Origin: an uncultured Dehalococcoidia bacterium
GTDB taxonomy: Bacteria > Chloroflexota > Dehalococcoidia > Lucifugimonadales > UBA1123
DNA: 64,000 bases
Assembly (NCBI GenBank): GCA_951812505.1
Contig: CATOSI010000001.1
Span: forward strand, 750,012-814,011
Direction of reading: 5' to 3'
Of the stretch, positions 5,191 to 37,738 are shown in pieces. Both the position numbers and the translations under genes were made by a program. Positions within the stretch are counted from its first letter, which is position 1, and the number at the start of each line of letters is the position of its first letter. The notes beneath the pieces are model-generated. The model was not told the origin of the DNA. It worked only from the letters and a program-made list of their open reading frames with translations, and ran no database searches.

Positions 5191-5202
5191 GGTAGGCCTT
5201 TC

Positions 5203-5558: not shown

Positions 5559-5559
5559 T

Positions 5560-5952
5560 TCAGGCCGTGACTTTCTCTTCTGCCTTCGCTTTCCTTCGCT
5601 CCGCCGCCCTTGCCTTCATACGACGCTCGAACTCTCTCTGGGCAGGCTCGTTCTGTCGTCTCATTTCCTCGACGATTTCGTCGCCCTCTTTGATTAGCCG
5701 TTCCACCTCTTCCTTGTTGTCGTAGTAGTAGGCGAGGGCAGAGTGGACCTGACCCATGTTTAGGACCGGCCAATATTTACAGATTTCCTCGGGGCTCAGT
5801 TTGTGGTGGTTGGTAGCTATGACGATGAGTTCCACCTTTATGCGGGTTCCGGCTATCATGGCGCGTCCGTCTTTCATCATCAGGATGTGCCGGTATCCGG
5901 TGTCGCTTACTATGGGCTGCATTTTGCTGTCTACCCCGACTGCGTCTCTCAA
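5560..5952 (-). CDS. DUF433-domain protein (antitoxin-like partner of DUF5615)
   Basis: 130 aa. The DUF433-like core reads GRAMIAGTRIKVELIV...LSPEEICKYWPVLNMGQVHSALAYYYDNKEEV. It ends 1 nt before the DUF5615 start. The real start may be the internal Met at 5922. Confidence 0.7.
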   Translation of the reverse strand: MRDAVGVDSKMQPIVSDTGYRHILMMKDGRAMIAGTRIKVELIVIATNHHKLSPEEICKYWPVLNMGQVHSALAYYYDNKEEVERLIKEGDEIVEEMRRQNEPAQREFERRMKARAAERRKAKAEEKVTA

Positions 5953-5998
5953 TCCGTGATCAACTTAGTACGTAGTAGATTAAGTGTACCATTTGGGT

Positions 5999-7603: not shown

Positions 7604-8060
7604 GAGTGGAGTTCCTGACCAGTTCAACAGCCGACTGAGCGTCCAGGCGTCCATACCAGCGACCATTTATCTCTATCGCCGGGGCTGTGCCGCACAGGAA
7701 GCCGCAGGCGGTCTCCTCGAGCGTGAAGCGGCTGTCGGTAGGGTCTGGAGCGAGTTCTTCTTCCAGCGCCGAGAGAATATCGGCTGAGCCCTGAACGAGA
7801 CATGAGAGGGCGGTGCAGACACGCACTACCGTGTCTCCCGGATCTTCGATGCGCAGTTCGGTGTACGAAGTAGCGGCGCCATACACTTCGGAGGCGGGGA
7901 TGCCCAGGTGCCAGCCGACTACTTCCATCCCCCAGTCGGGGAGGTAGCCGAATTCACGCTGGAGGAAGTGGAGTGCGGGCAGAAGTTGGCCATGATTTCG
8001 GGGGAACTTCGCCCTGAGTTCGCGGCGCAAAGTGTTCTGGTCGGTTATCAAGGACCTCAC
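7596..8060 (-). CDS. NuoE-like 2Fe-2S thioredoxin-fold subunit (FdsG-like)
   Basis: 154 aa. It carries LLPALHFLQREFGYLP and the C-x4-C...C Cys pattern (VCTALSCLVQGS ... ETACGFLC) typical of the NuoE/HoxE family. Confidence 0.85.
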   Translation of the reverse strand: MRSLITDQNTLRRELRAKFPRNHGQLLPALHFLQREFGYLPDWGMEVVGWHLGIPASEVYGAATSYTELRIEDPGDTVVRVCTALSCLVQGSADILSALEEELAPDPTDSRFTLEETACGFLCGTAPAIEINGRWYGRLDAQSAVELVRNSTHD

Positions 8061-8218
8061 CTCTGATTATCCTGATTCAGACGGCGTGATTCTATCAGAA
8101 TTGGCGAGGGCATGATTGTCCGAATTCAAGATTTGCAGGATTATAGGATTGGACGGGATTCTACCCCTCCCTGATGTTTGAACACCTCGAGCGGGATGAT
8201 TGAGAAGGTGGGATTGAA

Positions 8219-10060: not shown

Positions 10061-10096
10061 ATCAATTCTCGATTGTGAATTTTCAGTTTTCAGTTT

Positions 10097-10399
10097 CTAG
10101 CCCCCTGCCTGGCTGGAGAACAGGTATATGGTATCGCCCGGGGAGATGGGGATCGGGTCGTCGCTGATGAAAGTGAGTCCGTTGAGGTTGGCGGTATAGC
10201 TGGGAAGCAGGCGCGAGCCGTCGTCCTCGAGCGCGACGGACAGCAGGGACGGTAGGGCCGCAGCGAGTGCGGCAGCCAAGTCGGACGTGCTGGATTGAGG
10301 TGAAAGGGCGACCCGGACATCGCGGACCCCGGCAACGGTTCGGGCATATCCGAACAGTTCAACCTGAACTATCACTCTACTTTCCGTTTTAGTATTCAT
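10097..10399 (-). CDS. moaD: MoaD/ThiS-family sulfur-carrier protein
   Basis: 100 aa ending in ...SSQAGG (C-terminal Gly-Gly). Its ATGA overlaps the mobA stop, and it sits in a Moco biosynthesis neighbourhood. Confidence 0.7.
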   Translation of the reverse strand: MNTKTESRVIVQVELFGYARTVAGVRDVRVALSPQSSTSDLAAALAAALPSLLSVALEDDGSRLLPSYTANLNGLTFISDDPIPISPGDTIYLFSSQAGG

Positions 10400-11031
10400 T
10401 GTTCAAAATTAGCCAAAGCGATGCGGTTCGCTCTTTCCAAGTCCTGCTGGGTGTTGATGTTGAAGAAGCTGAGGAGGTCTGGGTCTATCTCACGCACTTG
10501 GTCTTCTGCGAAATAGCTGACGGTTACGTCATCGAAGAAGCCGGAAATCTTCAACTCGTTCGCGTTCAGTTTCTCGCGGATTGGACCTAGACATGGTTTT
10601 GAATAAGCGGCGTGAATTGGCTCAGGTCTTCCGTCCACGACGGGAACGACAGCGTTGTTGGAGCCCCGTTCGGCCAACAGGGCCTCGTATAGTTGGGGAC
10701 TGGGGAAGGGCATATCGCAGGCACAAAAGACAGCCCACTCAGTCGGTGCGGCGCACAGGCCGGTATAGATTCCTCCGAGCGAACCTTTGCCGGGATATTC
10801 GTCTATTACCGGAGTTGTGCATTCTGGCAGATCGAGTTCGGCGACGCGCTCGTCGTCGTTGGCGACAACAATGATGTTGGACGTTACAAGACCCATTGTG
10901 CGGATTACACGGCGGATTAAGGGTTCGCCCTGGAATGGCTCCAGCGCTTTGTTCCGACCCAGACGCCGACTCATGCCGCCCGCAAGTATGACAGCAGTGA
11001 CACCGAAAGTCCTGTTCACGCATTCGCTCAT
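10396..11031 (-). CDS. mobA: Molybdenum cofactor guanylyltransferase
   Basis: 211 aa. It carries the N-terminal nucleotide-binding motif AVILAGGMSRRLGRNKAL. Confidence 0.85.
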   Translation of the reverse strand: MSECVNRTFGVTAVILAGGMSRRLGRNKALEPFQGEPLIRRVIRTMGLVTSNIIVVANDDERVAELDLPECTTPVIDEYPGKGSLGGIYTGLCAAPTEWAVFCACDMPFPSPQLYEALLAERGSNNAVVPVVDGRPEPIHAAYSKPCLGPIREKLNANELKISGFFDDVTVSYFAEDQVREIDPDLLSFFNINTQQDLERANRIALANFEQ

Positions 11032-11050
11032 AGGTTCAGATTATCAGAAC

Positions 11051-13108
11051 TCAGTCTGTACCGCTACCCAGAACTGCTTTGAGAGTGCCCATTTCGCTCA
11101 CGTTGTAGCCACCGAGGGATTGCACTTCTGCCTGGAAGTCGGACGAGCGAATCATTTCAAGCATGGGCGCGAGAAGTTCGCTGTCGTAGAACTCGGCAGG
11201 AATCACGAGGTCGTACTGCTCCTCGAAAAGTGGGATGAAGTCGAGTCCCATAGCGCGCGCGGCGGGCAGGATGCCGAGTCCCACATCGGCCCGACCACCC
11301 TGCACTGCCGCCGCGACTGCGAGGTGAGTGTACTCTTCACGGTCGTAGCCGGATATGGATTCAGGCGAAACGCCAAGTTCGCGGAGCTTGAAGTCGAGCA
11401 AGACGCGAGTGCCGGCGCCACGCTGTCGGTTGACGAACCTGACTCCTGACCTTGCCACATCTGACAGGGAGGATATTCGCATGGGATTGCGCGGGGCGGT
11501 CATTAGTCCCTGTGTTCTTCCCGTGAGGTGGACCAAGGCGACCCGACTGCCCGGAATGTAGCGTTCTATGTAGGACACGTTGTACTCGCCGGTGTCTTCG
11601 TCCATGAGATGCGAGCCCGCGATGTGCGTTTCGCCTCTACGGACCGCGAGGAGGCCACCCAGACTGCCGACGTTTGCAGAGGCGAGAGTCGGATTGCCGG
11701 GATGCTCGCTGAGGCGGCTGGCGAGTAGATCGAGGATGAGGTCGTGACTGCCTATTGCGACTATAGTGCGTTGGATGTCCGGCATGGGCCTGAGAAGGCG
11801 TACATCAACTTCGCTGCCAGCCTCTATGCCCTCGGAGTTTCTGGGGACGCGGGCAATACCGTCGGCGCGGACAAGTGAGCTTATGACGCCCGCACCACGC
11901 TGGAGAGGCGTCGCGACAAGCCTTTCGCCGACCTGTCCGAGGCGGACACGCAGGAATTCGTCCTCGCCCATGGGGGAGTGGACGCGGCGGGTTATTGTGG
12001 CCGTAGCAACAGGATCTGGGTCGGCGGAGCGTCCCAGCCTGGATTCGACGATGGGCTGCACAAACAGTTCGCAGGCTATGACCGCCGATACAGGATAGCC
12101 CGGGATCCCAATGACGGGCTTGCTCTCGACAACTCCCAGTACGATTGGATGGCCGGGCCGGATGGCGACGCCGTGAACTACCAGATTACCTAGCTGCTCG
12201 ACGCAACCTGCGGTGTAGTCCTCAGTACCGGCTGAGGATCCTGCATTGACCAGAACGATGTCGTAGCGGCTGACGGCCTGGCTTATCGCATCGCTAAGCA
12301 GGTCGGGGTCGTCGGGGACAGGGGGGAGCCGGGTAGGGTCGGTGCCCCACTCTTCGAGCATGGAGGCGAGGACTATTGAGTTGAATTCCACTATGTCGCC
12401 TGGCTTGGGGTTCTCGGAAATGTCAACGAGCTCGGTTCCGGTGGGGATGATGGCAACAGTGGTCTTGGGTCGGACGGCGATTTCGGTGACTCCGGCGGCG
12501 GCGCAGGCTCCGAGGTCGGCGGGGCGCAGGCGGTGGTTCTGTGGGAGGAGAAGTTCGGATTCTACGATGTCCTCTCCGAGCGGCCTGACGTGGTTGTAGG
12601 GCGGGACTGGGGCCCTTATCTCGATGGCGGAATCGTCGAGACGGTTGACGACTTCTATCATTATTACGGCGTCGAACTCGTCGGGAACCGGATCGCCGGT
12701 GTCCACCCATTCGGCCTGTTCGGGGAGCGTGAGGGTGAGGGGCGAGGTCTCGGACGCGCCAACAGTGTCAGCGGCGCGCACTGCCACGCCGTCCATGGCT
12801 GAGGCGTCGTAGTGGGGGACTGAGCGGGCGGCCCAGACTGGCTCGGCGGTAATTCTGCCGAGGGCATCTTGGATGGAGATGCGCTCGGGTTCGGGTGTGG
12901 TGAGGGCGTCCGCGTGGCTCAGGGCGTCGGTGTAGCGGGCGGTGGCCTCGTGGAGGGGAATGTCCTCGAGGTAATAGCGGCGGGAGTGGGCGTGGGTCAT
13001 GGCGCGGTTTTCAATGCGGCTATCCAGCCTGAGGATTCGGGATTTTCGGGCAAGGGAACTCTCTCCAAGGAGGGTGAGTGCACGAGGTCGTGGCCCACTT
13101 TCGGACAC
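11051..13108 (-). CDS. MoeA-type molybdopterin molybdo/tungsto-transferase fused to a C-terminal periplasmic-binding-protein-like (anion-binding) domain
   Basis: 685 aa. The MoeA body includes PHYDASAMDGVAV, GEDI, and IPGYPVS in place of the usual GLPGNPVS. A PBP-like tail of about 230 aa follows (IGSHDL...GGLLAVRRGETHIAGSHL). An alternative start is the Met at 13000. Confidence 0.8.
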   Translation of the reverse strand: MSESGPRPRALTLLGESSLARKSRILRLDSRIENRAMTHAHSRRYYLEDIPLHEATARYTDALSHADALTTPEPERISIQDALGRITAEPVWAARSVPHYDASAMDGVAVRAADTVGASETSPLTLTLPEQAEWVDTGDPVPDEFDAVIMIEVVNRLDDSAIEIRAPVPPYNHVRPLGEDIVESELLLPQNHRLRPADLGACAAAGVTEIAVRPKTTVAIIPTGTELVDISENPKPGDIVEFNSIVLASMLEEWGTDPTRLPPVPDDPDLLSDAISQAVSRYDIVLVNAGSSAGTEDYTAGCVEQLGNLVVHGVAIRPGHPIVLGVVESKPVIGIPGYPVSAVIACELFVQPIVESRLGRSADPDPVATATITRRVHSPMGEDEFLRVRLGQVGERLVATPLQRGAGVISSLVRADGIARVPRNSEGIEAGSEVDVRLLRPMPDIQRTIVAIGSHDLILDLLASRLSEHPGNPTLASANVGSLGGLLAVRRGETHIAGSHLMDEDTGEYNVSYIERYIPGSRVALVHLTGRTQGLMTAPRNPMRISSLSDVARSGVRFVNRQRGAGTRVLLDFKLRELGVSPESISGYDREEYTHLAVAAAVQGGRADVGLGILPAARAMGLDFIPLFEEQYDLVIPAEFYDSELLAPMLEMIRSSDFQAEVQSLGGYNVSEMGTLKAVLGSGTD

Positions 13109-13124
13109 CGGCCAATCTCAACGT

Positions 13125-14357
13125 TTAGTATAGGTTAACAGACACTCTTTCTCCCGCATATAGCCCCCCGGAGTCTGCCGGCACTTGTATAAGCCCATGG
13201 GAATTGACCAGGGTGTAGATGAGGTTGGATTTGCCGAATACGGGGGTGGCGCGTGCTTGCCCGTCGGACTTGGACAAGGTTACTGGTACGTAGTCCTCTC
13301 TGCCTGATTCGGAGGGAATATCGGCGGTGAGGATGGCTTCAACCGTGTTTGTCGTGGGCGGGCTGCTTGCTCCGGAGAGTAGGCGGATGGTGGGGGCTAC
13401 CAACAGGTCGAAGACTACGAGCGCGGACACCGGATTGCCTGGGAGTCCGAATAGGGGCTTGCCGTCGGCGACCGCGACTATGGTGGGCTTGCCGGGCTTG
13501 ATTGAGATGCCGTGCAGCAGGACGCCGGGGTTGCCGAGTTGGTTGAATACGTCGGCGGTCATGTCGCGCGTACTGAGTGAGCTTCCGGCTGAGAAGACGA
13601 GGGCATCGGCTGACTGAATCCCTCTGCGGGCGGCCTGGAGTTGGGGTTCGTATTCGTCGGGCGCGAGTCCGATGACGACAGGCTCGGCTCCACACTGGGC
13701 AACGCGGGCCGCGACTGTGTAGGTGTTGATGTCGCGTATTTTGCCCGGAGGCGGTGATACGTCGGGCGGAACGAGTTCGTCGCCGGTGGAGACGATGGCG
13801 ACTCTGGGCCTTCTGAGGACCTCAATCTCCGTAATGCCGAGCGCCAACAGGCCGCCGATGTCCTGGGGGCGGATAGCGTGGCTTGGACTGAATAGCAGGT
13901 CTCCGGCTCGGACATCCTCGCCCTCGTTTACAACGTTTTCACCAGGGGCGACGGGACGAAGGATCTCGATGGAGGTATCGTCCGCGGGCTGGGTGCGCTC
14001 GATCATCACAACTGCGTCCGCGTTGCCGGCGAGCATTCCGCCCGTGTAGGCGACAGCGGCTTCCCCGACACTCAGTTCCACATCAGATTCGGCCCCTGTC
14101 GGAATGTCGGCGACTACTTCCATCATAGCGGGGAGGGTCTCGGACGCGCCGAAGGTGTCGCGGGCGCGCACTGAGAAGCCGTCCATGGAGGACTTAGGAA
14201 ACGAGGGCAGGTCTTCGGGGGAGCGTATTTGGTCGGCGATTACGCGGCCCAGCGCGGACGTAGTGGGTATGGTCTCACGCTCGCTTATGGCGAAGATGTG
14301 TGGGCGCAGGTCGTCGAAGGCCTGGGAGGGTGAACGAACGTTGAAAAATTCGGGCAT
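13125..14357 (-). CDS. moeA: Molybdopterin molybdenumtransferase
   Basis: 410 aa with canonical MoeA motifs: PSFPKSSMDGFSV, GEDV, TGDEL and GLPGNPVSA. Confidence 0.88.
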   Translation of the reverse strand: MPEFFNVRSPSQAFDDLRPHIFAISERETIPTTSALGRVIADQIRSPEDLPSFPKSSMDGFSVRARDTFGASETLPAMMEVVADIPTGAESDVELSVGEAAVAYTGGMLAGNADAVVMIERTQPADDTSIEILRPVAPGENVVNEGEDVRAGDLLFSPSHAIRPQDIGGLLALGITEIEVLRRPRVAIVSTGDELVPPDVSPPPGKIRDINTYTVAARVAQCGAEPVVIGLAPDEYEPQLQAARRGIQSADALVFSAGSSLSTRDMTADVFNQLGNPGVLLHGISIKPGKPTIVAVADGKPLFGLPGNPVSALVVFDLLVAPTIRLLSGASSPPTTNTVEAILTADIPSESGREDYVPVTLSKSDGQARATPVFGKSNLIYTLVNSHGLIQVPADSGGLYAGERVSVNLY

Positions 14358-14396
14358 TTTCTCTCCGTCCGTCGGTACAAGTATGGGTTTAACGGA

Positions 14397-14798
14397 TTAT
14401 ATGCTTTGGCGTATCTCAATGCCGTCGCTGGGAAAGCGTCGGTCGAATGTGTAGATGGCACTCGCGCCGTCGGTGCGGGCGGCGGCCCAAATCATGGCGT
14501 CGGCTATGGACACTCTTCCTGACGGGCGGCACATCTCCAAGCCCCGCAGAACGAGACTCTTATCCAGAGCGTAGGTAGATATGTTGTCTCTTTCTACCAA
14601 GTCTATGAGGCTGTCAACCACTTCCGAGCGGGACTTGCCATAGACTGACGTAAGCACAAAAGCGGTTTCCCCCAAGATGCCTTCCGTGATGGCGAGGTCA
14701 TCAACTTCTTCTATGATTTGGGTCGCTTGGTTCGACATTTCGGGCTGGTCGTTTGTTAAATAGCGAACGATCACGCTAGTGTTAAGGAAGACGCCCAT
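14397..14798 (-). CDS. vapC: PIN-domain toxin (VapC-like)
   Basis: The start ATG at 14798 (MGVFLNTSVIVRYL...) overlaps the antitoxin stop as ATGA. The C-terminus reads ...IYTFDRRF. The track ORF extends upstream into the antitoxin gene. Confidence 0.8.
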   Translation of the reverse strand: MGVFLNTSVIVRYLTNDQPEMSNQATQIIEEVDDLAITEGILGETAFVLTSVYGKSRSEVVDSLIDLVERDNISTYALDKSLVLRGLEMCRPSGRVSIADAMIWAAARTDGASAIYTFDRRFPSDGIEIRQSI

Positions 14799-15082
14799 CA
14801 GACCCGTTCCCTGAGCCCCATTTTCTCTTCGGCCCTTACTTTCCAAGCATATTCCCGCGCCTCGTCCCACTCCTTGCCGGAGGCGACTTTTTTCTTGAGG
14901 TTCTTGGAAAGGCGGCCCGCCAAGGGTTTGCCGTCGTCAGGGGGGTGGAAGTAGATTATGAGGTGGTCTTCTTCCAAGTATTGGTAGGCGCGCCAGCCGG
15001 GGCCTATGCCCAGCTTTTCGCGCAACTCTTCGCCTATGACTATCTCGCCCTTCTGTCCGACTTCTTCCACTTTGTAAGTCAT
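14798..15082 (-). CDS. AbrB/MazE(SpoVT)-fold antitoxin
   Basis: 94 aa. The swapped-hairpin style N-terminus reads MTYKVEEVGQKGEIVIGEELREKLGIGPG. It lies immediately upstream of the PIN gene and overlaps it. Confidence 0.72.
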   Translation of the reverse strand: MTYKVEEVGQKGEIVIGEELREKLGIGPGWRAYQYLEEDHLIIYFHPPDDGKPLAGRLSKNLKKKVASGKEWDEAREYAWKVRAEEKMGLRERV

Positions 15083-15109
15083 AGCTGAGCTCCTCGATTC
15101 TTGGAATGG

Positions 15110-16750
15110 TTACAGGCCCAGGATGTTGCCCTCGTCATCAACGTCTAGCTGGCGCGGTGACCCAGGAAGCCCGGGCATGGTGACTATGTTTCCGGCTATC
15201 GGATAGATGAACCCGGCGCCTATGGAGGCGCGAACGTCCGACAGCTGGAAGGTGTAGCCAGAGGGTCGCCCCTTGAGCGCGGGCCGGTGCGAGATGGAGA
15301 GGTGCGTCTTTGCCATGCAGATGGGCAGGTTGCCCCATCCGCGTTCCTGGAACTGCCTGAGCGTCCGACCCGCCGGTAGCGCCCAGCGGACATTCCCTGC
15401 GTTATATACGCGTTTAGAGAGAGCGACTACCTTTTCGCGAAGGGTATCGTCTATGGCGTAGGCGTAGTCTATTTCAGGGTGATCGTCCGCCTCGGTAGCC
15501 GCTATCACGGCTTCGGCGAGGTCCATACCGCCGGCGCCGCCCTCAGCGAATACCTTGCTTTCGACGGCAGCGAACGCCCCTGCTTCTTCCGATCCCTGCT
15601 TGAGGATGGCGGTCTCTTCGGCCGTGTCGGTCGGGAAGTGGTTAAGCGCGACAACGACCGGAAGGTTGAAAGACTTGATCATTCCGATGAGGTGAGTAAG
15701 GTTCTCCATGCCCTTCTGTACGGCCTCGGCGTTGGGCGTTCCGAGGTCGCGCACCCGGACGCCGCCGTGATATTTAACGGCACGCACCGAGGCGACTATG
15801 ACAGCGGCGTGCGGCTCCAGGCCATTGAAGCGCGCCTTGATGTGCATGAACTTCTCGAAGCCCAGATCGGCGCCGAAGCCGGCCTCGGAGAGAACGTAGT
15901 CCGCGTATCCGAGTGCGAGCCTGTCGCCAACGACGGACGAGCAGCCGTGCGCAATGTTCCCGAATGGTCCGGCGTGAACGATAACGGGCTGCCCCTCGGT
16001 GGTCTGGACGATGTTGGGCTGTATCGCGTAGCGGAGCAGCGACATCATCGAGCCCACGGCGCCTACATCTTCGGCGGTGATGGGCGTGCGGTCGGCGGCC
16101 CTTGTCTCGGTGGTGTAGCCGACGACGACGCGGCTCAGCCTGGCGCGGAGATCCTCAAGGTCTCTCGAAAGCGCCAAGATTGCCATGATCTCAGACGCCG
16201 TGACGATGTCGAAGCCGCTCTCGCGCACCGGGGCGTTGTTCGAGCCACCAATACCGGTCATAATCGCGCGCAGGGCACGGTCCTCGACATCGGTGACGCG
16301 CCTCCAGGATATTCCCTCCGGCCTGAAGCCGTCTATTCGGCCGCGCTGGGCTACGTTGTCCGTAAGAGCGGCGAGCAGGTTGTGGGCTGAACCGACGGCG
16401 TGGGCATCGCCCGTGAAGTGGATGTTGACTTCATCCTCCGGCTCAATCAGGCTGAGTCCGCCGCCTGTGCCGCCGCCCTTGATTCCGAAGATAGGACCGA
16501 GCGACGGCTCCCTGAGAGTCGCTACCACGTTCTTGCCGAGTCGTCCCATGGCCTGAGTCAGGCCAACGGTGGTTGTAGTCTTGCCTTCTCCGGCGGGCGT
16601 GGGCGTGATGCCGGTAACGACTACCATCTTGCCGCGCCTCCCGTCGTCACGGATAGCGTCGAGGCTTATCTTGGCCTTGTGGTGACCGTATGGGATGATC
16701 GCGTCGCGGCTAAGTCCCAATTCCTCTGCTACGTCCATGATCGGCCGCAT
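15110..16750 (-). CDS. fhs: Formate--tetrahydrofolate ligase
   Basis: 546 aa. It carries PTPAGEGKTTTTVGL and the C-terminus shows the typical PG(L/M)P motif. Confidence 0.93.
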   Translation of the reverse strand: MRPIMDVAEELGLSRDAIIPYGHHKAKISLDAIRDDGRRGKMVVVTGITPTPAGEGKTTTTVGLTQAMGRLGKNVVATLREPSLGPIFGIKGGGTGGGLSLIEPEDEVNIHFTGDAHAVGSAHNLLAALTDNVAQRGRIDGFRPEGISWRRVTDVEDRALRAIMTGIGGSNNAPVRESGFDIVTASEIMAILALSRDLEDLRARLSRVVVGYTTETRAADRTPITAEDVGAVGSMMSLLRYAIQPNIVQTTEGQPVIVHAGPFGNIAHGCSSVVGDRLALGYADYVLSEAGFGADLGFEKFMHIKARFNGLEPHAAVIVASVRAVKYHGGVRVRDLGTPNAEAVQKGMENLTHLIGMIKSFNLPVVVALNHFPTDTAEETAILKQGSEEAGAFAAVESKVFAEGGAGGMDLAEAVIAATEADDHPEIDYAYAIDDTLREKVVALSKRVYNAGNVRWALPAGRTLRQFQERGWGNLPICMAKTHLSISHRPALKGRPSGYTFQLSDVRASIGAGFIYPIAGNIVTMPGLPGSPRQLDVDDEGNILGL

Positions 16751-20361: not shown

Positions 20362-21099
20362 TCATTCGCCGCTCAGCCGTTCCAATTCGGCTTCCAACTC
20401 GGCGACGCGTCGTTCGGCAACTGCGCGCGCTACGCGTTCGGACTCGACGCGTTGTTCGGCGGACTGTCGCGCGTCCTCCGACTCATTGAGCGTCGGAAGG
20501 TACTCCCCGCTTACAGGATCGCGGAAGCGTAGAATGCCGTCGTCCCACCAGAACTCCAGACCCAGCCTCTCGCTGTATCCCCAACGACGACCATCCGGCT
20601 CTACGGCTATCTCGATAGGCATATACCTATCATCCACAAGCATGTCGCCCGCCAGAGGCGCGTCGTGATACTCGCCGCCCGACGGGTCGAATCGCCAGTA
20701 TTCGCGCACGCCATATCCGGCGTAGCGTTCGCGCTTGTCGGTGTAGTCTTGTCTGCCCGTACCCTCGGAACCAACTTCCAGAACCAGATCGGGAGGCTTG
20801 CCCACCTCGCTTATCACGTAGCCGTTGCGGTGGAATATCCTCTCCGCGCCGTCCAACCCCTCGGCGAATACGCCGTCCGGATAGGGGCCGCTCCTGTCAT
20901 CCGCATCGGCCCACAGGTAGCCAAGCGCCCCCACAAAAACGTCGTCCCTGTCCTTGAACCACAAGCAGAGAGCCGAGGTGAAAGCGTTGATGCCTGGATA
21001 CTGCTTCATCATGTCAGGCTGCCTCGGGGGATCCGGCAGAGGCTTGACGTTCGAGTAGTCTGGTACTCGGATTTTTGTGAGTACACTCTGTGTAGCCAT
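20362..21099 (-). CDS. Uma2-family (DUF820) PD-(D/E)xK endonuclease-like protein with coiled-coil tail
   Basis: 245 aa. The core reads PDLVLEVGSEGTGRQDYTDKRERYAGYGVREYWRFDPSG. The C-terminus is Ala/Glu/Arg-rich. Confidence 0.82.
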   Translation of the reverse strand: MATQSVLTKIRVPDYSNVKPLPDPPRQPDMMKQYPGINAFTSALCLWFKDRDDVFVGALGYLWADADDRSGPYPDGVFAEGLDGAERIFHRNGYVISEVGKPPDLVLEVGSEGTGRQDYTDKRERYAGYGVREYWRFDPSGGEYHDAPLAGDMLVDDRYMPIEIAVEPDGRRWGYSERLGLEFWWDDGILRFRDPVSGEYLPTLNESEDARQSAEQRVESERVARAVAERRVAELEAELERLSGE

Positions 21100-21272
21100 G
21101 GTCGTGTTCTCCGCGAGACTCTCTCACCTGGGTCTCCGTTTAGTCAGCGTTGTGCGTGGCAATTATAACACTGGCTCGGCACTGGCAATAGGGCGACACG
21201 CTAGATATGGCGGTGTGGTGTGTTGGCTATTGCTGTCAGAATCAGGATTTTCGGGCCTGTTCAAGGGTCAAT

Positions 21273-21331
21273 GGAATTCCGCTTTCAAGGGAATGATGCT
21301 AGTTGTGCGAAGTCTCCTTCCTCTGGAATAA
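21273..21331. repeat. Degenerate copy of the GGATTCCCGC/GCGGGAAT palindromic repeat plus the GTTGTGCGAAG-TCTCC module
   Basis: ggaattccgctttcaagggaatgatg is followed by ctagttgtgcgaagtctcc. Compare 49786-49848 and 30933-30960. Confidence 0.55.
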
Positions 21332-21340
21332 TAGGTCAAT

Positions 21341-22435
21341 TTACTTGATCACCGTCAGATACGGTGGCCTATCTCGATACCAATGGTAATATTCATCAGG
21401 ACTTATCGCCAAGAGTCGCATTATATTTTCATCCGAATACTCTAATTTTTCTCTATAAAATTGAACTATAGCCTTTACTAGGCGTGGTTCTTCCCAGGGA
21501 GGGTCTAATTCTATGGGCTCACGTGTGCGATACCCGTGAGACGAGAGACGCACAAACCAAGATCTACGCTGTCTGTCCGTCAAGTTTCCTAAACTATGTG
21601 CTCGCATAATGAGTGCCTGCATTGATACTTTCCAATACTGTTTTAGTGAGGCGAGTTTCTCGAATGTAAGATTAGTAAGTTGTCTTTTGATTTCTCGTTC
21701 AGGTGTCAAAAATTCTGCTGCGAATCTGTCTGCCTCTTCTTCACCAGTTGGTTCAGGGGATTTATAGTGCATGACTATATGCCCTATTTCATGGGCAAGG
21801 GTCCAACGAATACGATCTGGAGGCCTATCTGTGTTTAGGAAAAACAACGACGGTAAAGTAGGAACACGTTTACTGAATCCATCAATATGCCGAGTACCAA
21901 ATCTGCAAAGAAAAACTACTCCACCTGATCTCTCTACAATCTGTACTATATTTCTTACAGGTCCAGACGGAAGATGCCAGGCCGCTCTTACTATGGCGGC
22001 AATTCTCTCGACTGATCCGTCAAAATCATCAGGGTCATGAGATGGGAACATTGCATCCCCAATATCAACAGCTCTTAATAATTTTTCCAAATGTATCCGA
22101 CGAATCTCAGATTCAGCATAAGATTTATTAAGAATACTCACCTTAGCCTTACGACGTGCTCTGTGATATATTTCATCACCGCCAGCCCCATAAATCTCTC
22201 CCGTATATTGGAAGAAATTTTCTGGATAGCTAAGAACATCAGAAATTCTAGATATATCTTCACGGGAAGGGATGTTTATGCCAGCTTCTATCCGAGAAAT
22301 TTTCCCCTGCGAAAATCCAAGTGAACGGGCAAGCGAACTTTGCGACAGTCCCCTGGACTGTCGCGCCAGCAATAGCATCTCCGAATTAAATCTATTTAAG
22401 TCTTCTAATGAATCATCCTTCATTGGCAGTCTCAC
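21341..22435 (-). CDS. XRE-type HTH fused to an ImmA/IrrE (COG2856) zinc metallopeptidase
   Basis: 364 aa. The HTH reads LLLARQSRGLSQSSLARSLGFSQGKISRIEAG. The zinc site is the HExxH motif LAHEIGHIVMH plus a downstream EEEADRFAAEFL. The DNA is AT-rich; one hand-counted 100-nt sample gave about 36% G+C. Confidence 0.85.
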   Translation of the reverse strand: MRLPMKDDSLEDLNRFNSEMLLLARQSRGLSQSSLARSLGFSQGKISRIEAGINIPSREDISRISDVLSYPENFFQYTGEIYGAGGDEIYHRARRKAKVSILNKSYAESEIRRIHLEKLLRAVDIGDAMFPSHDPDDFDGSVERIAAIVRAAWHLPSGPVRNIVQIVERSGGVVFLCRFGTRHIDGFSKRVPTLPSLFFLNTDRPPDRIRWTLAHEIGHIVMHYKSPEPTGEEEADRFAAEFLTPEREIKRQLTNLTFEKLASLKQYWKVSMQALIMRAHSLGNLTDRQRRSWFVRLSSHGYRTREPIELDPPWEEPRLVKAIVQFYREKLEYSDENIMRLLAISPDEYYHWYRDRPPYLTVIK

Positions 22436-23060
22436 TCGTGACTCGGGCCCTTATTGTCGGAGTGATGTCATCTTCAGGAGGATGTGTAACTAAATCTGTA
22501 ATTTGTGCAAGTGAATCATCGTAGAGTTGCCATGTCCAGATATTACGATTTCCATCAGGCATCGTCACATATATAGCGGCGGCGGATGTTCGCGTAGGAT
22601 TGAGAAGATAGCCTAATGTAAGACTGGCAACTGGGGGCATATGTGGCAATTCACTCTGATAATCTTGGTGGTTAAACAAAACCGCTTGTTGAGTTGGGAT
22701 ATTACGGGACCTCATGTTCTCATCTAATTTCTTGAACCGCAGTGTTGCCGATAGTGCCCCATCAGACACGTAGTAGTAATACAGCCCTTGACTGTACCTA
22801 GGTATGAACTGATCCAAACAGCTAAGTCTATCACTTGCGAGACCAATCATTATGTCGTGGATTATGCTGGCGTCGGAACGCTTCCCGAGTCGGTAGCGTA
22901 CAGAAGCAAAATCTTGAGTGTACAATCTAACAGAGTCAGTAGGTATTCTAAAGAGGATACTCTCATGTGGAGCAAGAAGTTCCATCGCTTGGTCTTTGCG
23001 CATATGCGTCATGATGACATTCCTCTGAAGAGTGATTCTATGGATTATATATATATCCAT
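22413..23060 (-). CDS. Hypothetical protein (no recognisable domain), translationally coupled upstream partner of the HTH-ImmA/IrrE gene
   Basis: 215-aa ORF; an alternative start is the Met at 23012. It overlaps the downstream gene by 23 nt and has the same AT-rich composition. Confidence 0.55.
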   Translation of the reverse strand: MDIYIIHRITLQRNVIMTHMRKDQAMELLAPHESILFRIPTDSVRLYTQDFASVRYRLGKRSDASIIHDIMIGLASDRLSCLDQFIPRYSQGLYYYYVSDGALSATLRFKKLDENMRSRNIPTQQAVLFNHQDYQSELPHMPPVASLTLGYLLNPTRTSAAAIYVTMPDGNRNIWTWQLYDDSLAQITDLVTHPPEDDITPTIRARVTSETANEG

Positions 23061-31043: not shown

Positions 31044-33089
31044 CTAGCTCAGGACCTGGGACATCATGGCGTCGGGGTTGGTTGTGGGGAGCTGGCAGGC
31101 GTAGTTGCGGCAGACGTAGGCGGTCGGCTTGCCTTCAATGACCGTTCTGTCCTGGAATACAGGCCAGTGGCTTACATCTTCGGCATTCTCGGGGGCGGAC
31201 ACAACGACTGTGCTTGTCTGGTAGGCGGAGGCGAGGCGACGGAGCAATTCGTCCGGTCCGGGACCGCCTGCGCCGGTTACTATGACCGCTTCTTTGTGGT
31301 CGGACAGATAGAAGTCGAGGACGGACAGCCAGTGTCCGGCGCCAGTGGGGAACTGGATCATGATGTCGCGGACGGAGCGGAGTGAATCGGAGGCCATGGT
31401 CCTGAGATCGCCGTCACCTGTGATAATGGAGAGTCGGGCCAGTACACCTGTCATCATGGAGTGACCGGAGGGGAGTGCGTTGTCGGTGACGTCGCGGGGT
31501 CGGATTATGAGGCTTTCCTGGTCGCTGCCTGTATCGTAGAAGCGACTCTGAAGGGGGTCCCAGAAAAGCGCGACGGCCTGCCGCGTCAGTTTCTCGGCCT
31601 GGACGAGCCAGCGTAGGTCGCCGTCCGCGGAGTGCAGCGCGAGCAGGCCGTCTATGAGGTGGGAGTAGTCGCCGAGGAAGCCCTGCGCGCCGTTGTCGGA
31701 ATCTCCGTCGGTCCGTCTCAGACGATCTTCCCGCACCATGTTTGTCAGAATGAAATCGGCGTTGTCGTGGGCGGATTTCAGATAGTCGTCCCTGCCGAAC
31801 ACGGCGGCGGCCTCGGCCATGGCAGCCATCATTAGTCCATTCCAGGATGTGATTACCTTTGTATCGGTGAGTGGGGCTATCCTGCCTGAACGTTCCTCCA
31901 GCAGCCTGGCGCTGGCGGACTCTACTAGGGATTCCAGACCTGCTACGGACATGGAATGTCTAGCCGCAACTTCGGAGGCGTCGTTGGGCACATTGAGGAT
32001 AGACATGCCCTCGAAGTTGCCCTCGGTGGTGACTCCGAAATAGTCGGCGACGACATTGGCATCCGCATTGCCGAGCACGCGGGCTAGCTGTTCGGGTCGC
32101 CAGACGAAGAACTTGCCTTCCACGCCCTCGCTGTCGGCGTCCTGGGCAGCGTAGAAGCCGCCATCGGAGTGGCGCATTTCTCGCAGGACGTAGTCGAGTA
32201 TTCCCTGCGCGACTCTCGCATAGGACGGGTTCCGGGTGGCCTGGAATGCGTGCGTGTAGAGCCGCGCAAGCAGAGCGTTGTCGTATAGCATCTTCTCAAA
32301 GTGCGGGACAAGCCAGAAGGCGTCGGTGGAGTACCTGTGGAACCCACCGCCAATCTGGTCGTACATGCCTCCTGCAGCCATTTTGTCGAGGGTCAGTTCC
32401 AGCATCTCGAGCGCGAGCGGCACACCGGTCCTGTGGTAGAAGCGGAGCAGGAATTCGAGGGTCTGCGGCTGGGGGAACTTAGGCTGAAGGCCGAAGCCGC
32501 CGGACCTGTCGTCGAACTGGTTAGTCAACTGGTCGAACGCGGCCCGCAGTATCGCATCGGTGAGAGGTTCCACACTTCTGCCCGCTGCGAAAGACTGGTT
32601 AATCCTGTCGACAAGCTGCCTGCCGCTGGTTATCACATCGGAGCGGCGCGTACTGAATACCTCGGCCATCGTGGAGAGAACTCGGGGGAAAGAGGGCAGG
32701 CCACCCCTGTCTTCGGGCGGGAAGTATGTGCCGCCGTAGAAGGGAGAACCGTCCGCCGTGAGGAAGACGGTCATGGGCCAACCGCCATGTCCGGTCATTG
32801 CCTGGATAGCAGTCATGTAAACGGAATCTACGTCTGGGCGCTCCTCGCGGTCCACCTTGATACTGATGAACGATTCATTCATCATGGCGGCGATTTCGGG
32901 ATTCTCGAAGGACTCGCGCTCCATGACGTGGCACCAGTGGCAGGAGGAGTAGCCGACGCTGAGCAGGACAGGCAGGTCGCGCTCGCGGGCGGCCTCGAAC
33001 GCCTCCTCGCCCCAGGGATACCAGTCAACCGGGTTGTCTTTGTGCTGGAGCAGATAGAGGCTAGTTTCGTTGGACAGGCGGTTAGGCAT
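31044..33089 (-). CDS. Thioredoxin-domain (DUF255) protein with (alpha/alpha)6 barrel, YyaL/SSP411 family
   Basis: 681 aa. It begins [29 protein letters not shown] and contains [10 protein letters not shown]. Confidence 0.88.
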
Positions 33090-33098
33090 AGTTGGGTC

Positions 33099-34580
33099 TC
33101 AGTCTCCGCGGACCTGTAGGGTCGTTACTTCTTTGGACTCGAGGTCGGTAACCCGGATGGCATGGTTGTTGGTGTCCGCAATGTAGAGCTTGCCGTCGTG
33201 GGCACTAACTCCGCCGGGTTCGTAGAACTGGGCCTGGGAGCCGTCGCCGTCCGCGTCGCCGACTTCGCCCGAACCGAATACGGACCTGCACAGTCGCGAA
33301 CCGGGGTCGAGGGACTTGATCTTGTTGTTGTACGAGTCGGTAATCCAGAGCAAGCCTTCGTGGAGCTCGAGTCCGATGGGGTGCTGCAGTCTCACATCGT
33401 CTCCGATGCCGTCAACGTCTCCGAAGGTAAACAGTCCCTCGCCGACGAGGGTGTTCACCGCGCCCATCGGAGAGACGGAGGCGGACCTGATCGAACTCGT
33501 TTCGCTGTCGGCGAAGTAGATGGTCTCGCCGTCCGACACAATGCCGCTGGGCTGGGCGAGTTCGGCTTGCTGGAGGGGGCCGTCGATGATTCTCTCGCGA
33601 CCGTTGCCAGCGTGCGGACGCAGGTCCCTGCTGTCGAGGTCCAGCTTCCATAGCTGGTGGAAACCAGCCATCGCTATGTACAGAGCGCTTTCGACTTTGA
33701 CCACGTCCCAGGGGGAGGCCAGGGATACGAAGCGTCCATTGCCACCAGCGTGCCGTCCCACAGACTGCTCGCCGGTGCCGGCGATAGTCCTGACCTGGAG
33801 ACTTTCGAGGTCTATCATCCTGATGGCGTGATTCTTGGTGTCGGCCACGTAGAGACGGGGCCAGTCGAGGGCGGCGCCCTGTGGATCGTGGAAAGCGGCC
33901 TCAGTTGCGTGGCCGTCCTTCAGACCGCGCTCGCCACTTCCAATTACGGCTTTGACCTCGCCGTCCAAGTCGGTCCAGACTATCCTGTTGTGACTGGAGT
34001 CGGAGATGAACAGTCCATGTTCGGAAGCGACCACCTTGCCGGGGAAGGAGAGGGGACGCTCCCACTCCAATTCGCTCTCGAGTCTGAAGGCGAGGGGCTT
34101 GCGGTCCATTTCGCCGATCTCGTCGAATTCGCCGATCATAGTAGCGAGGACGTTGTCCAGCGCCTCAATCGGGAACTCACCTTCGTGCTTGCCAATGACC
34201 TTGCCCGACGGACTTATGAACATCAGGGTGGGCCAGGCCCGGCAGGCGTACTGCTGCCAGACCATGAAATCGGCGTCGTTGATGACGGGGTGTTCTATTT
34301 CGTATCGAAGAATGGCGCGCCGAACACTATCCGTAGCTTTCTCCGCGTTGAACTTAGCCGAGTGAACTCCAACCACCGCGAGTTCGCCAGCGTACTTCTC
34401 CTCCAATTTCCGCAACTGCGGAAACACATGCATACAGTTAATTCAACAGTACGTCCAGAAGTCCAAGACCAGAACCTTGCCACTGAAATCGGCAAGCGTT
34501 AGTGGGCGTTCGGTGTTCAGCCAATCCAGGCCCGTCGGAAAATCGGGGGCATTGACGGTCCCAGTGAATCTGCGCGCCAT
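33099..34580 (-). CDS. Thioredoxin-like (AhpC/TSA fold) + NHL-repeat beta-propeller protein (NHLRC2-like). Candidate selenoprotein with in-frame UGA at 34443-34445.
   Basis: Track ORFs 34443..34700 and 33099..34433 are in the same frame, separated only by TGA. The joined sequence reads ...[12 protein letters not shown]-[TGA][17 protein letters not shown]..., so the TGA occupies the first Cys of the CxxC redox motif. The start ATG at 34580 lies 7 nt after a GAGGAG RBS. NHL-type repeats follow. Confidence 0.62.
34407..34424 (-). promoter_or_regulatory. Candidate bacterial SECIS hairpin
   Basis: The RNA UUUCCGC-AGUU-GCGGAAA has a 7-bp perfect stem and a 4-nt loop containing GU. It starts 18 nt downstream of the in-frame UGA. 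Confidence 0.45.
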
Positions 34581-34647
34581 AGCATTACTCCTCGCATCAT
34601 TTCCATCGTCAGCGACAGAATCGCTGGGAAATCGGTTATGCCCGAAC

Positions 34648-35307
34648 TCAGGCGGGCCAGTCTTCGAGATTATACGCCATTGTCCAGAACATGTGCTCAT
34701 AGCGTGAGCTGGTTAGATAAGCCTGCTCCATCATATCTCGCGTATCGGGGCCAGCTTCATCGGCGAGTTCGTCCACGAATTCCGACCAAGCGGCTACGCT
34801 TACTTCAAGCAGCCCCTCCGCGTAGCTTGACTGCCAGATCTTGTAAGTGGGATGTTCGGGCTCTTTCAGTATCTTGCCGACCTCATGGTATATGCGAGGG
34901 CAGGGGAGAAGAGCCGCGACGCCGCAGGCAAGACCGCCCATGTCCATCGAGACTTCGATGTGGTTCATATACGCAAGATTCGTCGGTGAGGGTGTCGAGG
35001 CTTCTGCCTCCTCCTCCGTGACGCCAAGCGCGTCAAAGAGCGCGCCGTGTAGCGGCCTTTCCACCGGGGTCGTCACCCGCTTGAGCAGCCTGACGGCGGA
35101 ATCTGTGTCGGGGGCCTGAGCGAGCGCTGCGGCGGCCGCACGTCCGAATGCGCCAAGGTACAGATAGTCCTGCAGAATGTAAAAGCGAAACTTCTCTATT
35201 GGGAGGGTCCCGTCCTGCAATTCAGCGAGGAAGGGATGGACAGACACCGATTCCCATATTGGGGAAGCTTGGCTCCAAAGGAAAGAGCTGAACGAGCTGT
35301 TTTCCAT
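34648..35307 (-). CDS. tenA: TenA-family aminopyrimidine aminohydrolase (thiaminase II)
   Basis: 219 aa with [28 protein letters not shown]. Confidence 0.85.
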
Positions 35308-35526
35308 CTATTATAATATCTCCATTATAAGCTACGAGAATCCAGTAGAAGGCATTGATGCATATATGTGAATATTTTTATACAGAATGGCGATTCATGT
35401 AGTTGCGATTTCGATCTGGCGTATCAGTCGACGGCATACATATCTAACAATTGCAATATTCATTAAGATTATTCAGACAGGTCGGTGGGGTAGTATGGCG
35501 GACAATGCCGGTCGGAGCGAGGGGAG

Positions 35527-35600
35527 CGTCCCTGGCAGGATTCGAACCCGCGACCCGCTGCTTAGAAGGCAGCCGCTCTATCCAGCTGAGCTACAGGGAC
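35527..35600 (-). tRNA. tRNA-Arg (anticodon UCU)
   Basis: Folded by hand as a cloverleaf. The acceptor stem is GTCCCTG/CAGGGAC and the D stem GCTC/GAGC. The anticodon stem is GCTGC/GCAGC with loop CTTCTAA. The T arm is GCGGG-TTCGAAT-CCTGC, and the discriminator is G. CCA is not encoded. Confidence 0.88.
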
Positions 35601-35949
35601 ACAGTCTGACTACGAATTCAGTTTAGCAACGGCCCATATTCGGGTCAAGGAAGTCGAGAATCAATTCGTCTGCCTTCAGACTCTTGTCTGCAGTACCGGC
35701 GGTCAATCTCTTCAGGAAACTTTCACGATTCGCGACGTCGGAAAAGATGACCTCATCAGAGATGCTAAATTCGATTATCTTCGGAAGGACCAAACGGATT
35801 GTTCATCTGCGTCATTTCCTGGAAGCAGCCTACCAGCTATCGAACTTCTAGAACTCACAGCCATCGCGAAAATGCGACGACGTCAAACCCCGTCACACTG
35901 AACACGGTCATCACATTGCGGCAAGCGCGGGAAGAGAATTGATCTGACT

Positions 35950-37246: not shown

Positions 37247-37738
37247 CTACTGAGTAGCTCCTGGTACCATCGCAGCGCGAGGAAGCAAGGCCGGTTTGAG
37301 TTTCGCCCCCAGTGGAACCGCGTAGAGCAATAAGAAGATGACCAGCGGATCAAGAGATGAGACTTGGCGGAAGAGGAAAGCCTTATCAGGGATTCGGTCA
37401 AAGGCGCCGGCGGCAAGCGCTACGTGAGGTTCGTCCCATAGGATGGGCCCTTGCGTGCTGTTGGGGTGACCGGACAGAGGAACTTGCATAGCCTTTATGA
37501 AGGCGGGAGTCTGCACCCCGGCAGGGGAGCAGGACAGGACAATACATGACACTCGCTCGGGGTTCGCCAAGGCGAATCGCATTCCAGTCCAGCCGCCCAT
37601 AGGCTGGCAAACTATAGCCGCGCGTTCAACCCCGGTCTCGTCCATAACGGCGAGTATATCTTCAGCGAAATGGGACGCCTTCCTGTAACGGGGTTCGCAA
37701 TGAGACCTTCCCCAGCCACGCCAGTCACGAATGGGCAT
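37247..37738 (-). pseudogene. Truncated, probably inactive alpha/beta-hydrolase remnant
   Basis: It starts inside the fold (..DWRGWGRS, which corresponds to the D-x-RG-x-G-x-S region). The nucleophile elbow reads QPMGG instead of G/Q-S-M-G-G, so Ser is replaced by Pro. The N-terminal HG/oxyanion part is missing because smpB ends 4 nt upstream. Confidence 0.5.

Follow-up and report, generated by a model that had tools for sequence, protein, structure and literature searches.

A thioredoxin-like/NHL gene of an uncultured Dehalococcoidia bacterium with a probable selenocysteine codon at its CxxC motif

On the minus strand of the DNA analysed here, a stretch of 64,000 nucleotides from an uncultured Dehalococcoidia bacterium (the window), two open reading frames lie in the same frame on either side of a TGA codon. 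The locus raises the question of whether this TGA ends a short peptide, reflects an error or a decayed gene, or is read through and, if so, as which amino acid. We consider it very probable that there is one gene here, encoding a cytoplasmic redox protein of the NHLRC2/SOQ1 family with thioredoxin-like (Trx-like) and NHL domains, and that UGA codon 46 is recoded as selenocysteine (Sec). The features of the locus are the following.

33099..34580, minus strand: complete predicted selenoprotein gene of 493 codons, including the probable UGA-Sec as codon 46; stop TGA at 33099-33101
34578..34580, minus strand: probable start ATG (MARRFTG...), with AGGAG about 9 nt upstream; full-length Cys homologues start equivalently
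34443..34445, minus strand: in-frame UGA, probably read as Sec, as the N-terminal, attacking residue of CxxC (C-U-I-N-C)
34425..34442, minus strand: spacer of 18 nt between UGA and hairpin (AUU AAC UGU AUG CAU GUG), constant in length in all Sec forms examined
34407..34424, minus strand: SECIS-type hairpin, with 5' arm UUUCCGC at 34424-34418, loop AGUU at 34417-34414 and 3' arm GCGGAAA at 34413-34407
31044..33089, minus strand: DUF255/YyaL-type thioredoxin-domain protein of 681 aa with a CHWCH motif (Pfam Thioredox_DsbH, 9.5e-75)

Translated through the TGA (34445..34443), the minus-strand frame reads DFWTYC-U-INC, so that, as an earlier note on this DNA had proposed, the codon sits at the first Cys of a thioredoxin-fold CxxC motif. 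The same note had the two reading frames separated only by the TGA, which is not the case: three further codons, ATT AAC TGT (I N C, 34442-34434), precede the listed start ATG of the 444-aa downstream ORF, and the frame is open throughout. It had also extended the region to 34700. The same-frame gene holds up, but the ATG at 34700 is an unlikely start since it lies inside the upstream TenA gene, and translation likely begins at ATG 34580, the place equivalent to the beginning of full-length Cys homologues that have no signal peptide (e.g., P0039). A tblastn search with the joined protein matched residues 1-493 in three loci (L001-L003). The source genome has not reassigned TGA, which in the window serves as an ordinary stop more often than any other codon and ends 26 of 56 gene-like ORFs.

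The joined protein matches Thioredoxin_8, AhpC-TSA, Redoxin and NHL in Pfam. Cut-offs are passed by PF00578 (35.8 against 26), PF08534 (34.4 against 26.6) and PF13905, and PF13905 with PF01436 makes up the Trx-like and NHL architecture. Within 493 aa, the protein carries a fused six-bladed propeller and the C-U-I-N-C site, and has neither a signal peptide nor a C-terminal domain. All NCBIfam models scored below cut-off, the best being ResA with 53 bits against 170. Residues 10-492 align with the lumenal region of Arabidopsis SOQ1 (7djj, E 5.9e-126) and residues 9-489 with human NHLRC2 (6gc1, E 3.1e-110), the latter in agreement with the relationship to NHLRC2-like proteins named in the earlier note. 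In both alignments U falls opposite the second Cys of CCINC, and the CC(I/V)NC motif thus appears as C-U-I-N-C. Judged by these alignments, the window protein is a member of the NHLRC2/SOQ1 family and a close homologue of both proteins.

Like SOQ1 (PDB 7djj/7djk), the window protein combines Trx-like and NHL domains and has the same DFWTYCCINCMHV active-site block, but SOQ1 has Cys where the window protein has Sec, and possesses a HAD domain, a transmembrane helix and a C-terminal DsbD-N-like domain, all three of which the window protein lacks. A second Cys pair lies in the C-terminal domain of SOQ1, for which methionine-sulfoxide-reductase activity has been reported (10.1101/2024.11.01.621559). 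The window protein stops short of this domain, its last residue (493) aligning with position 513 in a SOQ1 chain of 667 residues. Given that this domain is not conserved throughout the family (PMC6107167), membership in the wider family is still open to a protein that is missing it. The Sec column corresponds to Cys431 of SOQ1, which together with C434 is essential for function (10.1101/2021.03.16.435614), and thus the Sec position is predicted to be functionally critical. NHLRC2, which is mutated in human FINCA disease, likewise combines Trx-like and NHL domains, carries CCINC in the cleft between them, and showed no oxidoreductase activity in an insulin assay (PMC6107167).

Comparison across genomes is decisive for the TGA. 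A further 36 species-level genomes, from Dehalococcoidia/Chloroflexota and one Rokubacteria, share it at this column, and many of these are complete chromosomes from long-read data. At the same column 43 other genomes have TGC or TGT, all without the hairpin. Among the best 120 homologue clusters, whose identities range from 91% down to about 62%, all 20 full-length clusters read CC[IV]NC, and a Cys is therefore present in homologues where the UxxC reading calls for one; 94 begin at the Met four codons past the TGA and 6 begin later. The residue preceding U in other Sec forms, as seen in metagenome contigs, is C, G or A. Across the 37 Sec forms, amino acids at residues -15 to -1 are kept while synonymous sites vary (Thr-3, for instance, is encoded by ACC in 14, ACA in 9, ACG in 9 and ACT in 5), and downstream of the TGA amino acids are likewise conserved and synonymous sites variable. 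Purifying selection on the coding sequence acts on both flanks. After U, Sec forms continue for 446-457 residues, except L073 with 773, and most Cys forms of other phyla for about 580-615.

A pseudogene, or a sequencing or assembly error, would need one base change to turn TGC or TGT into TGA, and the window was examined in one assembly, at consensus level. However, a mutated or miscalled codon is effectively refuted by the recurrence of the same TGA, which 120 independent metagenome contigs and 36 further species-level genomes also carry. The 444-aa ORF recurs in identical form on a second, independent ENA scaffold, and selection acts on both flanks, which likewise speaks against this explanation; we regard its probability as negligible.

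Two separate genes would be the conventional annotation. The UGA would then be the true stop of a 45-residue peptide, and a second protein would start from the ATG four codons on, or from a nearby TTG, and would be without the first half of the thioredoxin active site. The ENA assembly does call a 45-aa ORF and a 444-aa ORF, 94 of the best 120 database clusters start at the Met after the TGA, and TGA is a normal stop in the source genome. Nevertheless, such a boundary would cut the thioredoxin fold inside the CxxC motif, where full-length homologues are contiguous, and the ATG itself is not conserved, being ATA in L025, GTG in L073 and CTG, ATC or ATT in many metagenome forms. Two genes would also give no reason for the four codons frozen in TGA forms only, the 18-nt spacing or the covariation of the outer stem pair described below. 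We see a very slim chance that this annotation is correct, and return to a single gene with a recoded UGA.

The hairpin that had been pointed out downstream, UUUCCGC-AGUU-GCGGAAA, begins exactly 18 nt past the UGA, and RNAfold recovers its 7-bp stem (-8.8 kcal/mol with 7 bp, or -10.6 with the extra G.U pair 34425/34406 that is possible in the source genome). Taken alone it is weak evidence, given that a single-sequence fold of 71 nt has z = 0.08 and that perfect 7-bp hairpins occur in the window at 0.875 per kb per strand. With permissive E-values, Rfam matched only tRNA-Arg in 33000-35700 and nothing at the hairpin.

The comparative evidence that links hairpin and TGA is, in contrast, far beyond chance. 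All TGA orthologues keep the hairpin at the 18-nt spacing, as shown by an ungapped alignment of 37 sequences and a fixed-spacing regular expression that matched 156 sequences, and no Cys form has it. When metagenomes were scanned for the hairpin pattern with the codon left open, TGA was found in 120 of 120 contigs. The 7-bp stem is exactly the RNAalifold consensus; an extension of the lower stem was unsupported, columns 21/40, 20/41 and 19/42 being unpaired. Codons +8 to +11, CCG CAG TTG CGG, are invariant in 37/37 Sec forms, in which adjacent invariant residues use 3-4 codons each, and they vary in Cys forms, which use four different codons for Pro and six for Leu at the hairpin positions. 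The hairpin encodes F-P-Q-L-R-K, the start of the helix after CxxC, and the corresponding peptide of Cys forms is (I/L)P(D/E)LK(K/R). The encoded peptide could explain part of the conservation of the hairpin, but does not explain the frozen synonymous sites.

Most stem pairs yield no covariation evidence because the hairpin core never varies, and the five inner pairs show zero variation in the unbiased set of 37 sequences. The outermost pair (22-39), left unconstrained by the search pattern, is U-A in 54, C-G in 46, U.G in 31 and mismatched in 6 of 137 unique sequences. Linked to the TGA, missing from Cys forms and covarying in this pair, the hairpin is selected as RNA. This is a clear instance in which an RNA element determines the protein sequence, with FPQLRK where Sec is used versus (I/L)PDLKK in Cys forms, and for SECIS biology it provides a single SECIS sequence found in more than one phylum.

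The SECIS of Escherichia coli fdhF is a coding-region stem-loop past the UGA with GU in the apical loop. Compared with it, the loop GU in the window lies, by our count, about 7 nt farther from the UGA. The window hairpin also differs in being a plain, perfect 7-bp stem that lacks a bulged U and is capped by the 4-nt loop AGUU. Both are stem-loops in the coding region soon after UGA with a small apical loop in which G is followed by U, and a small apical loop containing G is common in bacterial SECIS elements (PMC1088965).

Recoding could also insert something other than Sec, either through near-cognate read-through (Trp or Cys) or by delivery of Cys through the Sec pathway under Se scarcity, in which case the hairpin would act as a general stimulator. 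Bacterial SelB systems can indeed use Cys-tRNA(Sec) to insert Cys when Se is limiting, and no Sec machinery was directly observed in the window or the fetched loci. On the other hand, the codon stands at the redox Cys of CxxC, where Sec and Cys classically replace each other and where a Trp would abolish the active site. In form and placement the hairpin matches bacterial SECIS elements, with a small G-containing loop soon after the UGA (PMC1088965), and Dehalococcoidia metagenome-assembled genomes (MAGs) are documented as rich in selenoproteins (PMC13326102). We consider that an amino acid other than Sec has a slim chance here, and favor Sec.

As the earlier note had remarked, the window itself holds no selA, selB, selD or tRNA-Sec gene, and none was found in the approximately 2.2 Mb of fetched loci either. 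Pfam annotation of about 50 window ORFs gave no sel genes, and ARAGORN gave no tRNA-Sec in the window and 36 Sec-form loci. The two matches of E. coli SelA, SelB and SelD in tblastn searches of the window and the ~2.2 Mb of loci were EF-Tu (L147) and ThiL (L013). Window and loci cover only a small fraction of each genome, and their lack of sel genes is thus uninformative rather than negative. The formate dehydrogenase of the window (2443-5190, minus strand) is of the Cys type (CTRLCHSPSV), again as had been noted. We scanned for other selenoprotein genes by tblastn of read-through frames for conserved TGA codons and by searching for a redox motif with an open frame and a hairpin. Both scans gave mostly off-frame noise and gene junctions; the target alone stood out, and neither the window nor its syntenic flanks yielded another selenoprotein gene. 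In BSepDB, whose entries are taken only from species having the Sec biosynthetic pathway, two Dehalococcoidia MAGs are among the ten bacteria richest in selenoproteins, with 49 and 46 selenoprotein genes (PMC13326102). This listing establishes Sec decoding in the class.

By analogy with the known bacterial system, SelB-GTP-Sec-tRNA(Sec) would bind the 7-bp AGUU hairpin, 18 nt downstream, while the ribosome is on the UGA, and would deliver Sec in competition with release factor 2. Homology suggests that in the C-U-I-N-C site Sec would attack and form a selenenylsulfide with the resolving Cys, which follows at the third residue after it, and that the active site would be placed in the interdomain cleft, the predicted binding site of a protein substrate.

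The gene 10 nt past the selenoprotein stop, of the DUF255/YyaL type, is probably co-transcribed with it. Of 36 Sec-form genome loci, 27 have the two genes linked, among them the distant L074 and L075, against none of 43 Cys-form loci, and the genes adjoin in 12 of 65 evaluable metagenome contigs. The DUF255/YyaL protein is a candidate functional partner, and the pairing of its thioredoxin-domain gene with the selenoprotein gene in marine Dehalococcoidia may reflect such a partnership.

Three listed families of the UxxC redoxin type (Prx-like, thiol-disulfide isomerase-like and Redoxin family; representatives include WP_010940744.1, MGB1650493.1 and HEU0032618.1) resemble the window protein in having Sec at the N-terminal UxxC position of a TlpA/redoxin-type thioredoxin fold, a coding-region hairpin after the UGA, widespread Cys homologues and matching Pfam domains. 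The gene may sit within this broad category among the 119 listed prokaryotic selenoprotein families. None of the 119 is described as carrying an NHL beta-propeller or as NHLRC2/SOQ1-like. The term NHL is missing from the review of these families and from the BSepDB, Sargasso, GOS and ISME papers, and a literature search linking NHL or NHLRC2 to selenocysteine or selenoproteins found nothing relevant.

The gene is almost certainly a real selenoprotein gene. We give about even chances to the broader proposal that the Trx-NHL protein forms a distinct and as yet unnamed bacterial selenoprotein family, widespread in marine and soil Chloroflexota and reaching Rokubacteria, with one homologous SECIS and, in marine Dehalococcoidia, an operon with the DUF255/YyaL gene. 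If so, selection of Sec at the position equivalent to Cys431/Cys90 would argue for a catalytic redox nucleophile there, and would do so in a protein without the C-terminal domain that bears the proposed methionine-sulfoxide-reductase site of SOQ1, a natural key experiment on a family with disputed biochemistry. Kept across many lineages, Sec at the first CxxC cysteine would constitute independent evolutionary evidence for redox catalysis by this residue. The family is of medical and agricultural relevance through NHLRC2 in FINCA disease and SOQ1, only recently proposed to be redox-active, and the Sec form could serve enzymology as a naturally hyper-reactive orthologue.

For annotation, gene callers routinely split the Sec-form gene in two, with no NCBIfam model to rescue it, and no fewer than 100 protein clusters, defined at 90% identity, are end-clipped at the UGA, with half of the active site lost. 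One clipped NCBI entry is named 'alkyl hydroperoxide reductase'.

Apart from a TGA at 34445..34443, a single uninterrupted frame runs across 33099-34700 on the minus strand. The earlier note listed two ORFs here as separated only by the TGA; they do lie in the same open frame, but the ATG of the 444-aa ORF comes three codons (I-N-C) after the TGA, and the ATG at 34700 lies inside the upstream TenA gene. Given the AGGAG upstream and the fit to full-length homologues such as protein cluster P0039, the ATG at 34580 is the likely start of the selenoprotein gene. On ENA scaffold L201 (9854-11335), public gene calls give two ORFs in place of the gene, of 45 and 444 aa. In the 90%-identity protein set, the clusters cut short at the UGA number at least 100, among them one NCBI entry, P0069, annotated as 'alkyl hydroperoxide reductase'.

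The 493-residue product was searched with Cys in place of the stop. Its Pfam domains are Thioredoxin_8, AhpC-TSA, Redoxin and NHL, and two solved structures align with it along its whole length: Arabidopsis SOQ1, in its lumenal Trx-like/NHL region (7djj; E 5.9e-126, residues 10-492), and human NHLRC2 (6gc1; E 3.1e-110), as the NHLRC2-like kinship proposed earlier predicts. Both SOQ1 and NHLRC2 have active sites of the DFWTYCCINCMHV type. In both proteins the TGA column falls on the second Cys of CCINC, where the CxxC begins, so translation and alignment place the in-frame TGA at the thioredoxin-fold CxxC of a Trx-like/NHL protein, where the earlier note had put it. The aligned SOQ1 residue is C431, and SOQ1 function requires C431 and C434 (10.1101/2021.03.16.435614). 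Unlike SOQ1, the window protein ends at the point where the SOQ1 C-terminal domain would start and, since a hydrophobic N-terminus is absent, it is a cytoplasmic two-domain version of the NHLRC2/SOQ1 type. No NCBIfam model claims it (best ResA, 53 bits versus a cut-off of 170).

The protein search covered 5.8 billion clusters, from which the best 120 matches were taken. Among these, all 20 full-length clusters carry CC[IV]NC, 94 clusters begin at a Met four codons past the TGA and 6 slightly later, and the break at TGA recurs from 91% to about 62% identity. The DNA comparison took in 80 species-representative genomes, in one of which the end of a contig breaks off the locus. The codon-46 column is TGA in 36 (Sec forms, from Dehalococcoidia, other Chloroflexota and one Rokubacteria MAG) and TGC or TGT in 43 (Cys forms, including Blastocatellia, Armatimonadota, Latescibacterota and Brocadia), and the Cys sought at this column is thus found in homologues at both levels. 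In the 37 Sec forms compared, the 15 codons upstream of the TGA keep their amino acids but change freely at synonymous sites, which shows that the N-terminal piece is translated in the same frame as the rest. TGA terminates 26 of the 56 gene-like ORFs of the window and is not reassigned in the source genome. Some Sec forms (L085, L088, L092, L093, L099 and other metagenome contigs) have Gly or Ala in place of Cys directly before U, as in DFWTYG-U-INC and HFWTYA-U-INC, so the first Cys of CCINC is dispensable where Sec is present.

In the comparison of loci L030-L080 with L001-L029, Sec forms in genomes were mostly of the short cytoplasmic type, with neither signal peptide nor C-terminal domain; most have 446-457 residues after U, the exception being the Rokubacteria locus L073 with 773. 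In Acidobacteriota, Armatimonadota and other phyla, most Cys forms begin with a signal peptide and end in an additional domain of ~130 residues.

RNAfold bears out the 7-bp hairpin reported 18 nt downstream of the UGA. UUUCCGC-AGUU-GCGGAAA lies at 34424..34407 (-), its first base exactly 18 nt past the UGA, with an energy of -8.8 kcal/mol by itself or -10.6 with one flanking G.U pair. The 71-nt fold around it has z = 0.08, perfect 7-bp hairpins occur in the window at 0.875 per kb per strand, and taken singly the hairpin is unremarkable. Its conservation in TGA-containing orthologues does hold: the core TTCCGCAGTTGCGGAA is present in every TGA form at a constant spacing of 18 nt and absent from all Cys forms (43 genomes compared). 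Only one TGA form, L023, has a stem mismatch (C.A), outside the core.

The P-Q-L-R codons are solely CCG CAG TTG CGG in 37/37 Sec forms, and invariant neighbours vary in codon, with three or four used (Val+23: GTG 17, GTC 11, GTA 5, GTT 4; Thr-3: ACC 14, ACA 9, ACG 9, ACT 5). Among Cys forms, Pro has four codons and Leu six at the same positions, and the peptide is (I/L)P(D/E)LK(K/R). The RNAalifold consensus is exactly the 7-bp stem. Public metagenomes were scanned with the hairpin core kept constant and the Sec codon and outer stem pair left free; of the contigs returned, 120/120 have TGA at the position, including one ending too near for context translation in which the TGA is still visible. 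Among 137 unique Sec-form sequences the outer pair is U-A in 54, C-G in 46, U.G in 31 and mismatched in 6, the third stem pair is U-A in 134, and a lower-stem extension is unsupported. The hairpin dictates protein sequence too, namely FPQLRK, with which the helix after the active site opens.

With the same TGA in 36 genomes and 120 metagenome contigs, and purifying selection on both its flanks, a sequencing error or pseudogene is excluded. Were the UGA a true stop between two separate genes, the thioredoxin fold would be cut inside the CxxC and the frozen synonymous sites would be left without explanation; moreover, the second start ATG is not conserved (it is ATA in L025 and GTG in L073, and many of the metagenome forms have CTG or ATC). 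That the UGA is recoded to something other than Sec is unlikely, given that the UGA position and hairpin form point away from it. The Sec/Cys pair at the redox cysteine, the conserved in-frame TGA and the coding-region stem-loop just downstream together fit the pattern of a bacterial selenoprotein gene. Bacterial SECIS elements commonly have a small apical loop containing G (PMC1088965), and the window hairpin likewise lies in the coding region just past the UGA with a small G-containing apical loop. For this selenoprotein, SelB-GTP-Sec-tRNA(Sec) would bind the hairpin and put in Sec at codon 46. C-U-I-N-C could then act as a selenolate nucleophile, with the resolving Cys three residues on, in an active site that may sit in the Trx/NHL cleft, described as a likely ligand-binding site (PMC6107167).

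As the earlier note cautioned for the window, selA, selB, selD and tRNA-Sec are absent from its 64 kb; nor do they occur in the fetched loci of relatives, where two sel-gene matches proved to be EF-Tu and ThiL and were rejected. No second selenoprotein gene was found in the window or nearby. BSepDB backs Sec decoding indirectly: drawing only on species with a Sec pathway, it counts 49 and 46 selenoprotein genes in two Dehalococcoidia MAGs, of which one bears a UUID-style isolate name like those of the fetched genomes (PMC13326102).

Bacterial selenoproteins are most often of the kind in which a thioredoxin fold carries Sec as the first residue of UxxC. The current inventory lists 119 families, several of them broad UxxC groups of redoxin type (PMC13188914). 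Not one of the 119 is described as NHL-containing or NHLRC2/SOQ1-like, and full-text searches turned up nothing relevant joining NHL or NHLRC2 to selenocysteine or selenoprotein. Given that BSepDB uses tblastn with family representatives and requires a Sec/TGA pair (PMC13326102, Methods), the database may already include the gene under a broad name. The finding puts right a systematic mis-annotation at UGA, offers evolutionary evidence that in the NHLRC2/SOQ1 family the first cysteine of the CxxC is a catalytic redox residue, and provides a tidy case of a SECIS shaping protein sequence.

In an NJ tree, Sec forms comprise a large Dehalococcoidia clade and a few deeper branches (L054/55, L074/75, L073), with Cys forms of other phyla nested among them. 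The SECIS sequence in common favours one origin for all Sec forms, beyond which the tree is too shallow to go. The features of the neighbourhood and of the wider window are as follows.

34648-35307, TenA-family gene, upstream neighbour of the selenoprotein gene
31044-33089 (-), DUF255/YyaL thioredoxin-domain gene with a CHWCH motif, starting 10 nt past the selenoprotein stop
35526-35600 (-), tRNA-Arg(TCT), ~1 kb upstream of the selenoprotein gene
37247-37738 (-), alpha/beta-hydrolase ORF of 163 aa, directly after smpB
2443-16750 (-), cluster of one-carbon and molybdenum/tungsten cofactor genes: NAD-type formate dehydrogenase alpha subunit (Cys type, CTRLCHSPSV); NuoF-like and NuoE-like subunits; tungsten-type aldehyde:ferredoxin oxidoreductase; MobA; two MoeA genes, one fused to a PBP-like domain; formate-tetrahydrofolate ligase
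20362-23060 (-), 14397-14870 and 5560-5952, small accessory genes: Uma2-family endonuclease, HTH/Peptidase_M78 (ImmA/IrrE-like), PIN-domain protein, DUF433

Of the Sec-form genome loci, 27/36 have the DUF255/YyaL gene downstream, the distant L074 and L075 among them; it lies there in 0/43 Cys-form genome loci and is adjacent in 12/65 evaluable metagenome Sec contigs (any match, 13/65). The pairing, noted at L001-L029, L062, L074 and L075 (about 11.5 kb), is therefore lineage-restricted rather than universal, and in marine Dehalococcoidia the two proteins may be functional partners. The block of aminotransferase, HflX-like GTPase, S41 peptidase, SmpB, DUF6391, tRNA-Arg, TenA and selenoprotein genes is stably syntenic, given that the tRNA-Arg(TCT) is held at the same place in 22 related genomes (L001-L022).

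The formate dehydrogenase is indeed the Cys form, as its motif confirms. The alpha/beta-hydrolase ORF covers only positions 34-137 of a 245-position Pfam profile, has 0 tblastn matches in the syntenic loci and is probably a gene fragment. The accessory genes of 20362-23060, the only ones searched, had no tblastn match in related loci; the small accessory genes look like toxin-antitoxin or mobile-element remnants.
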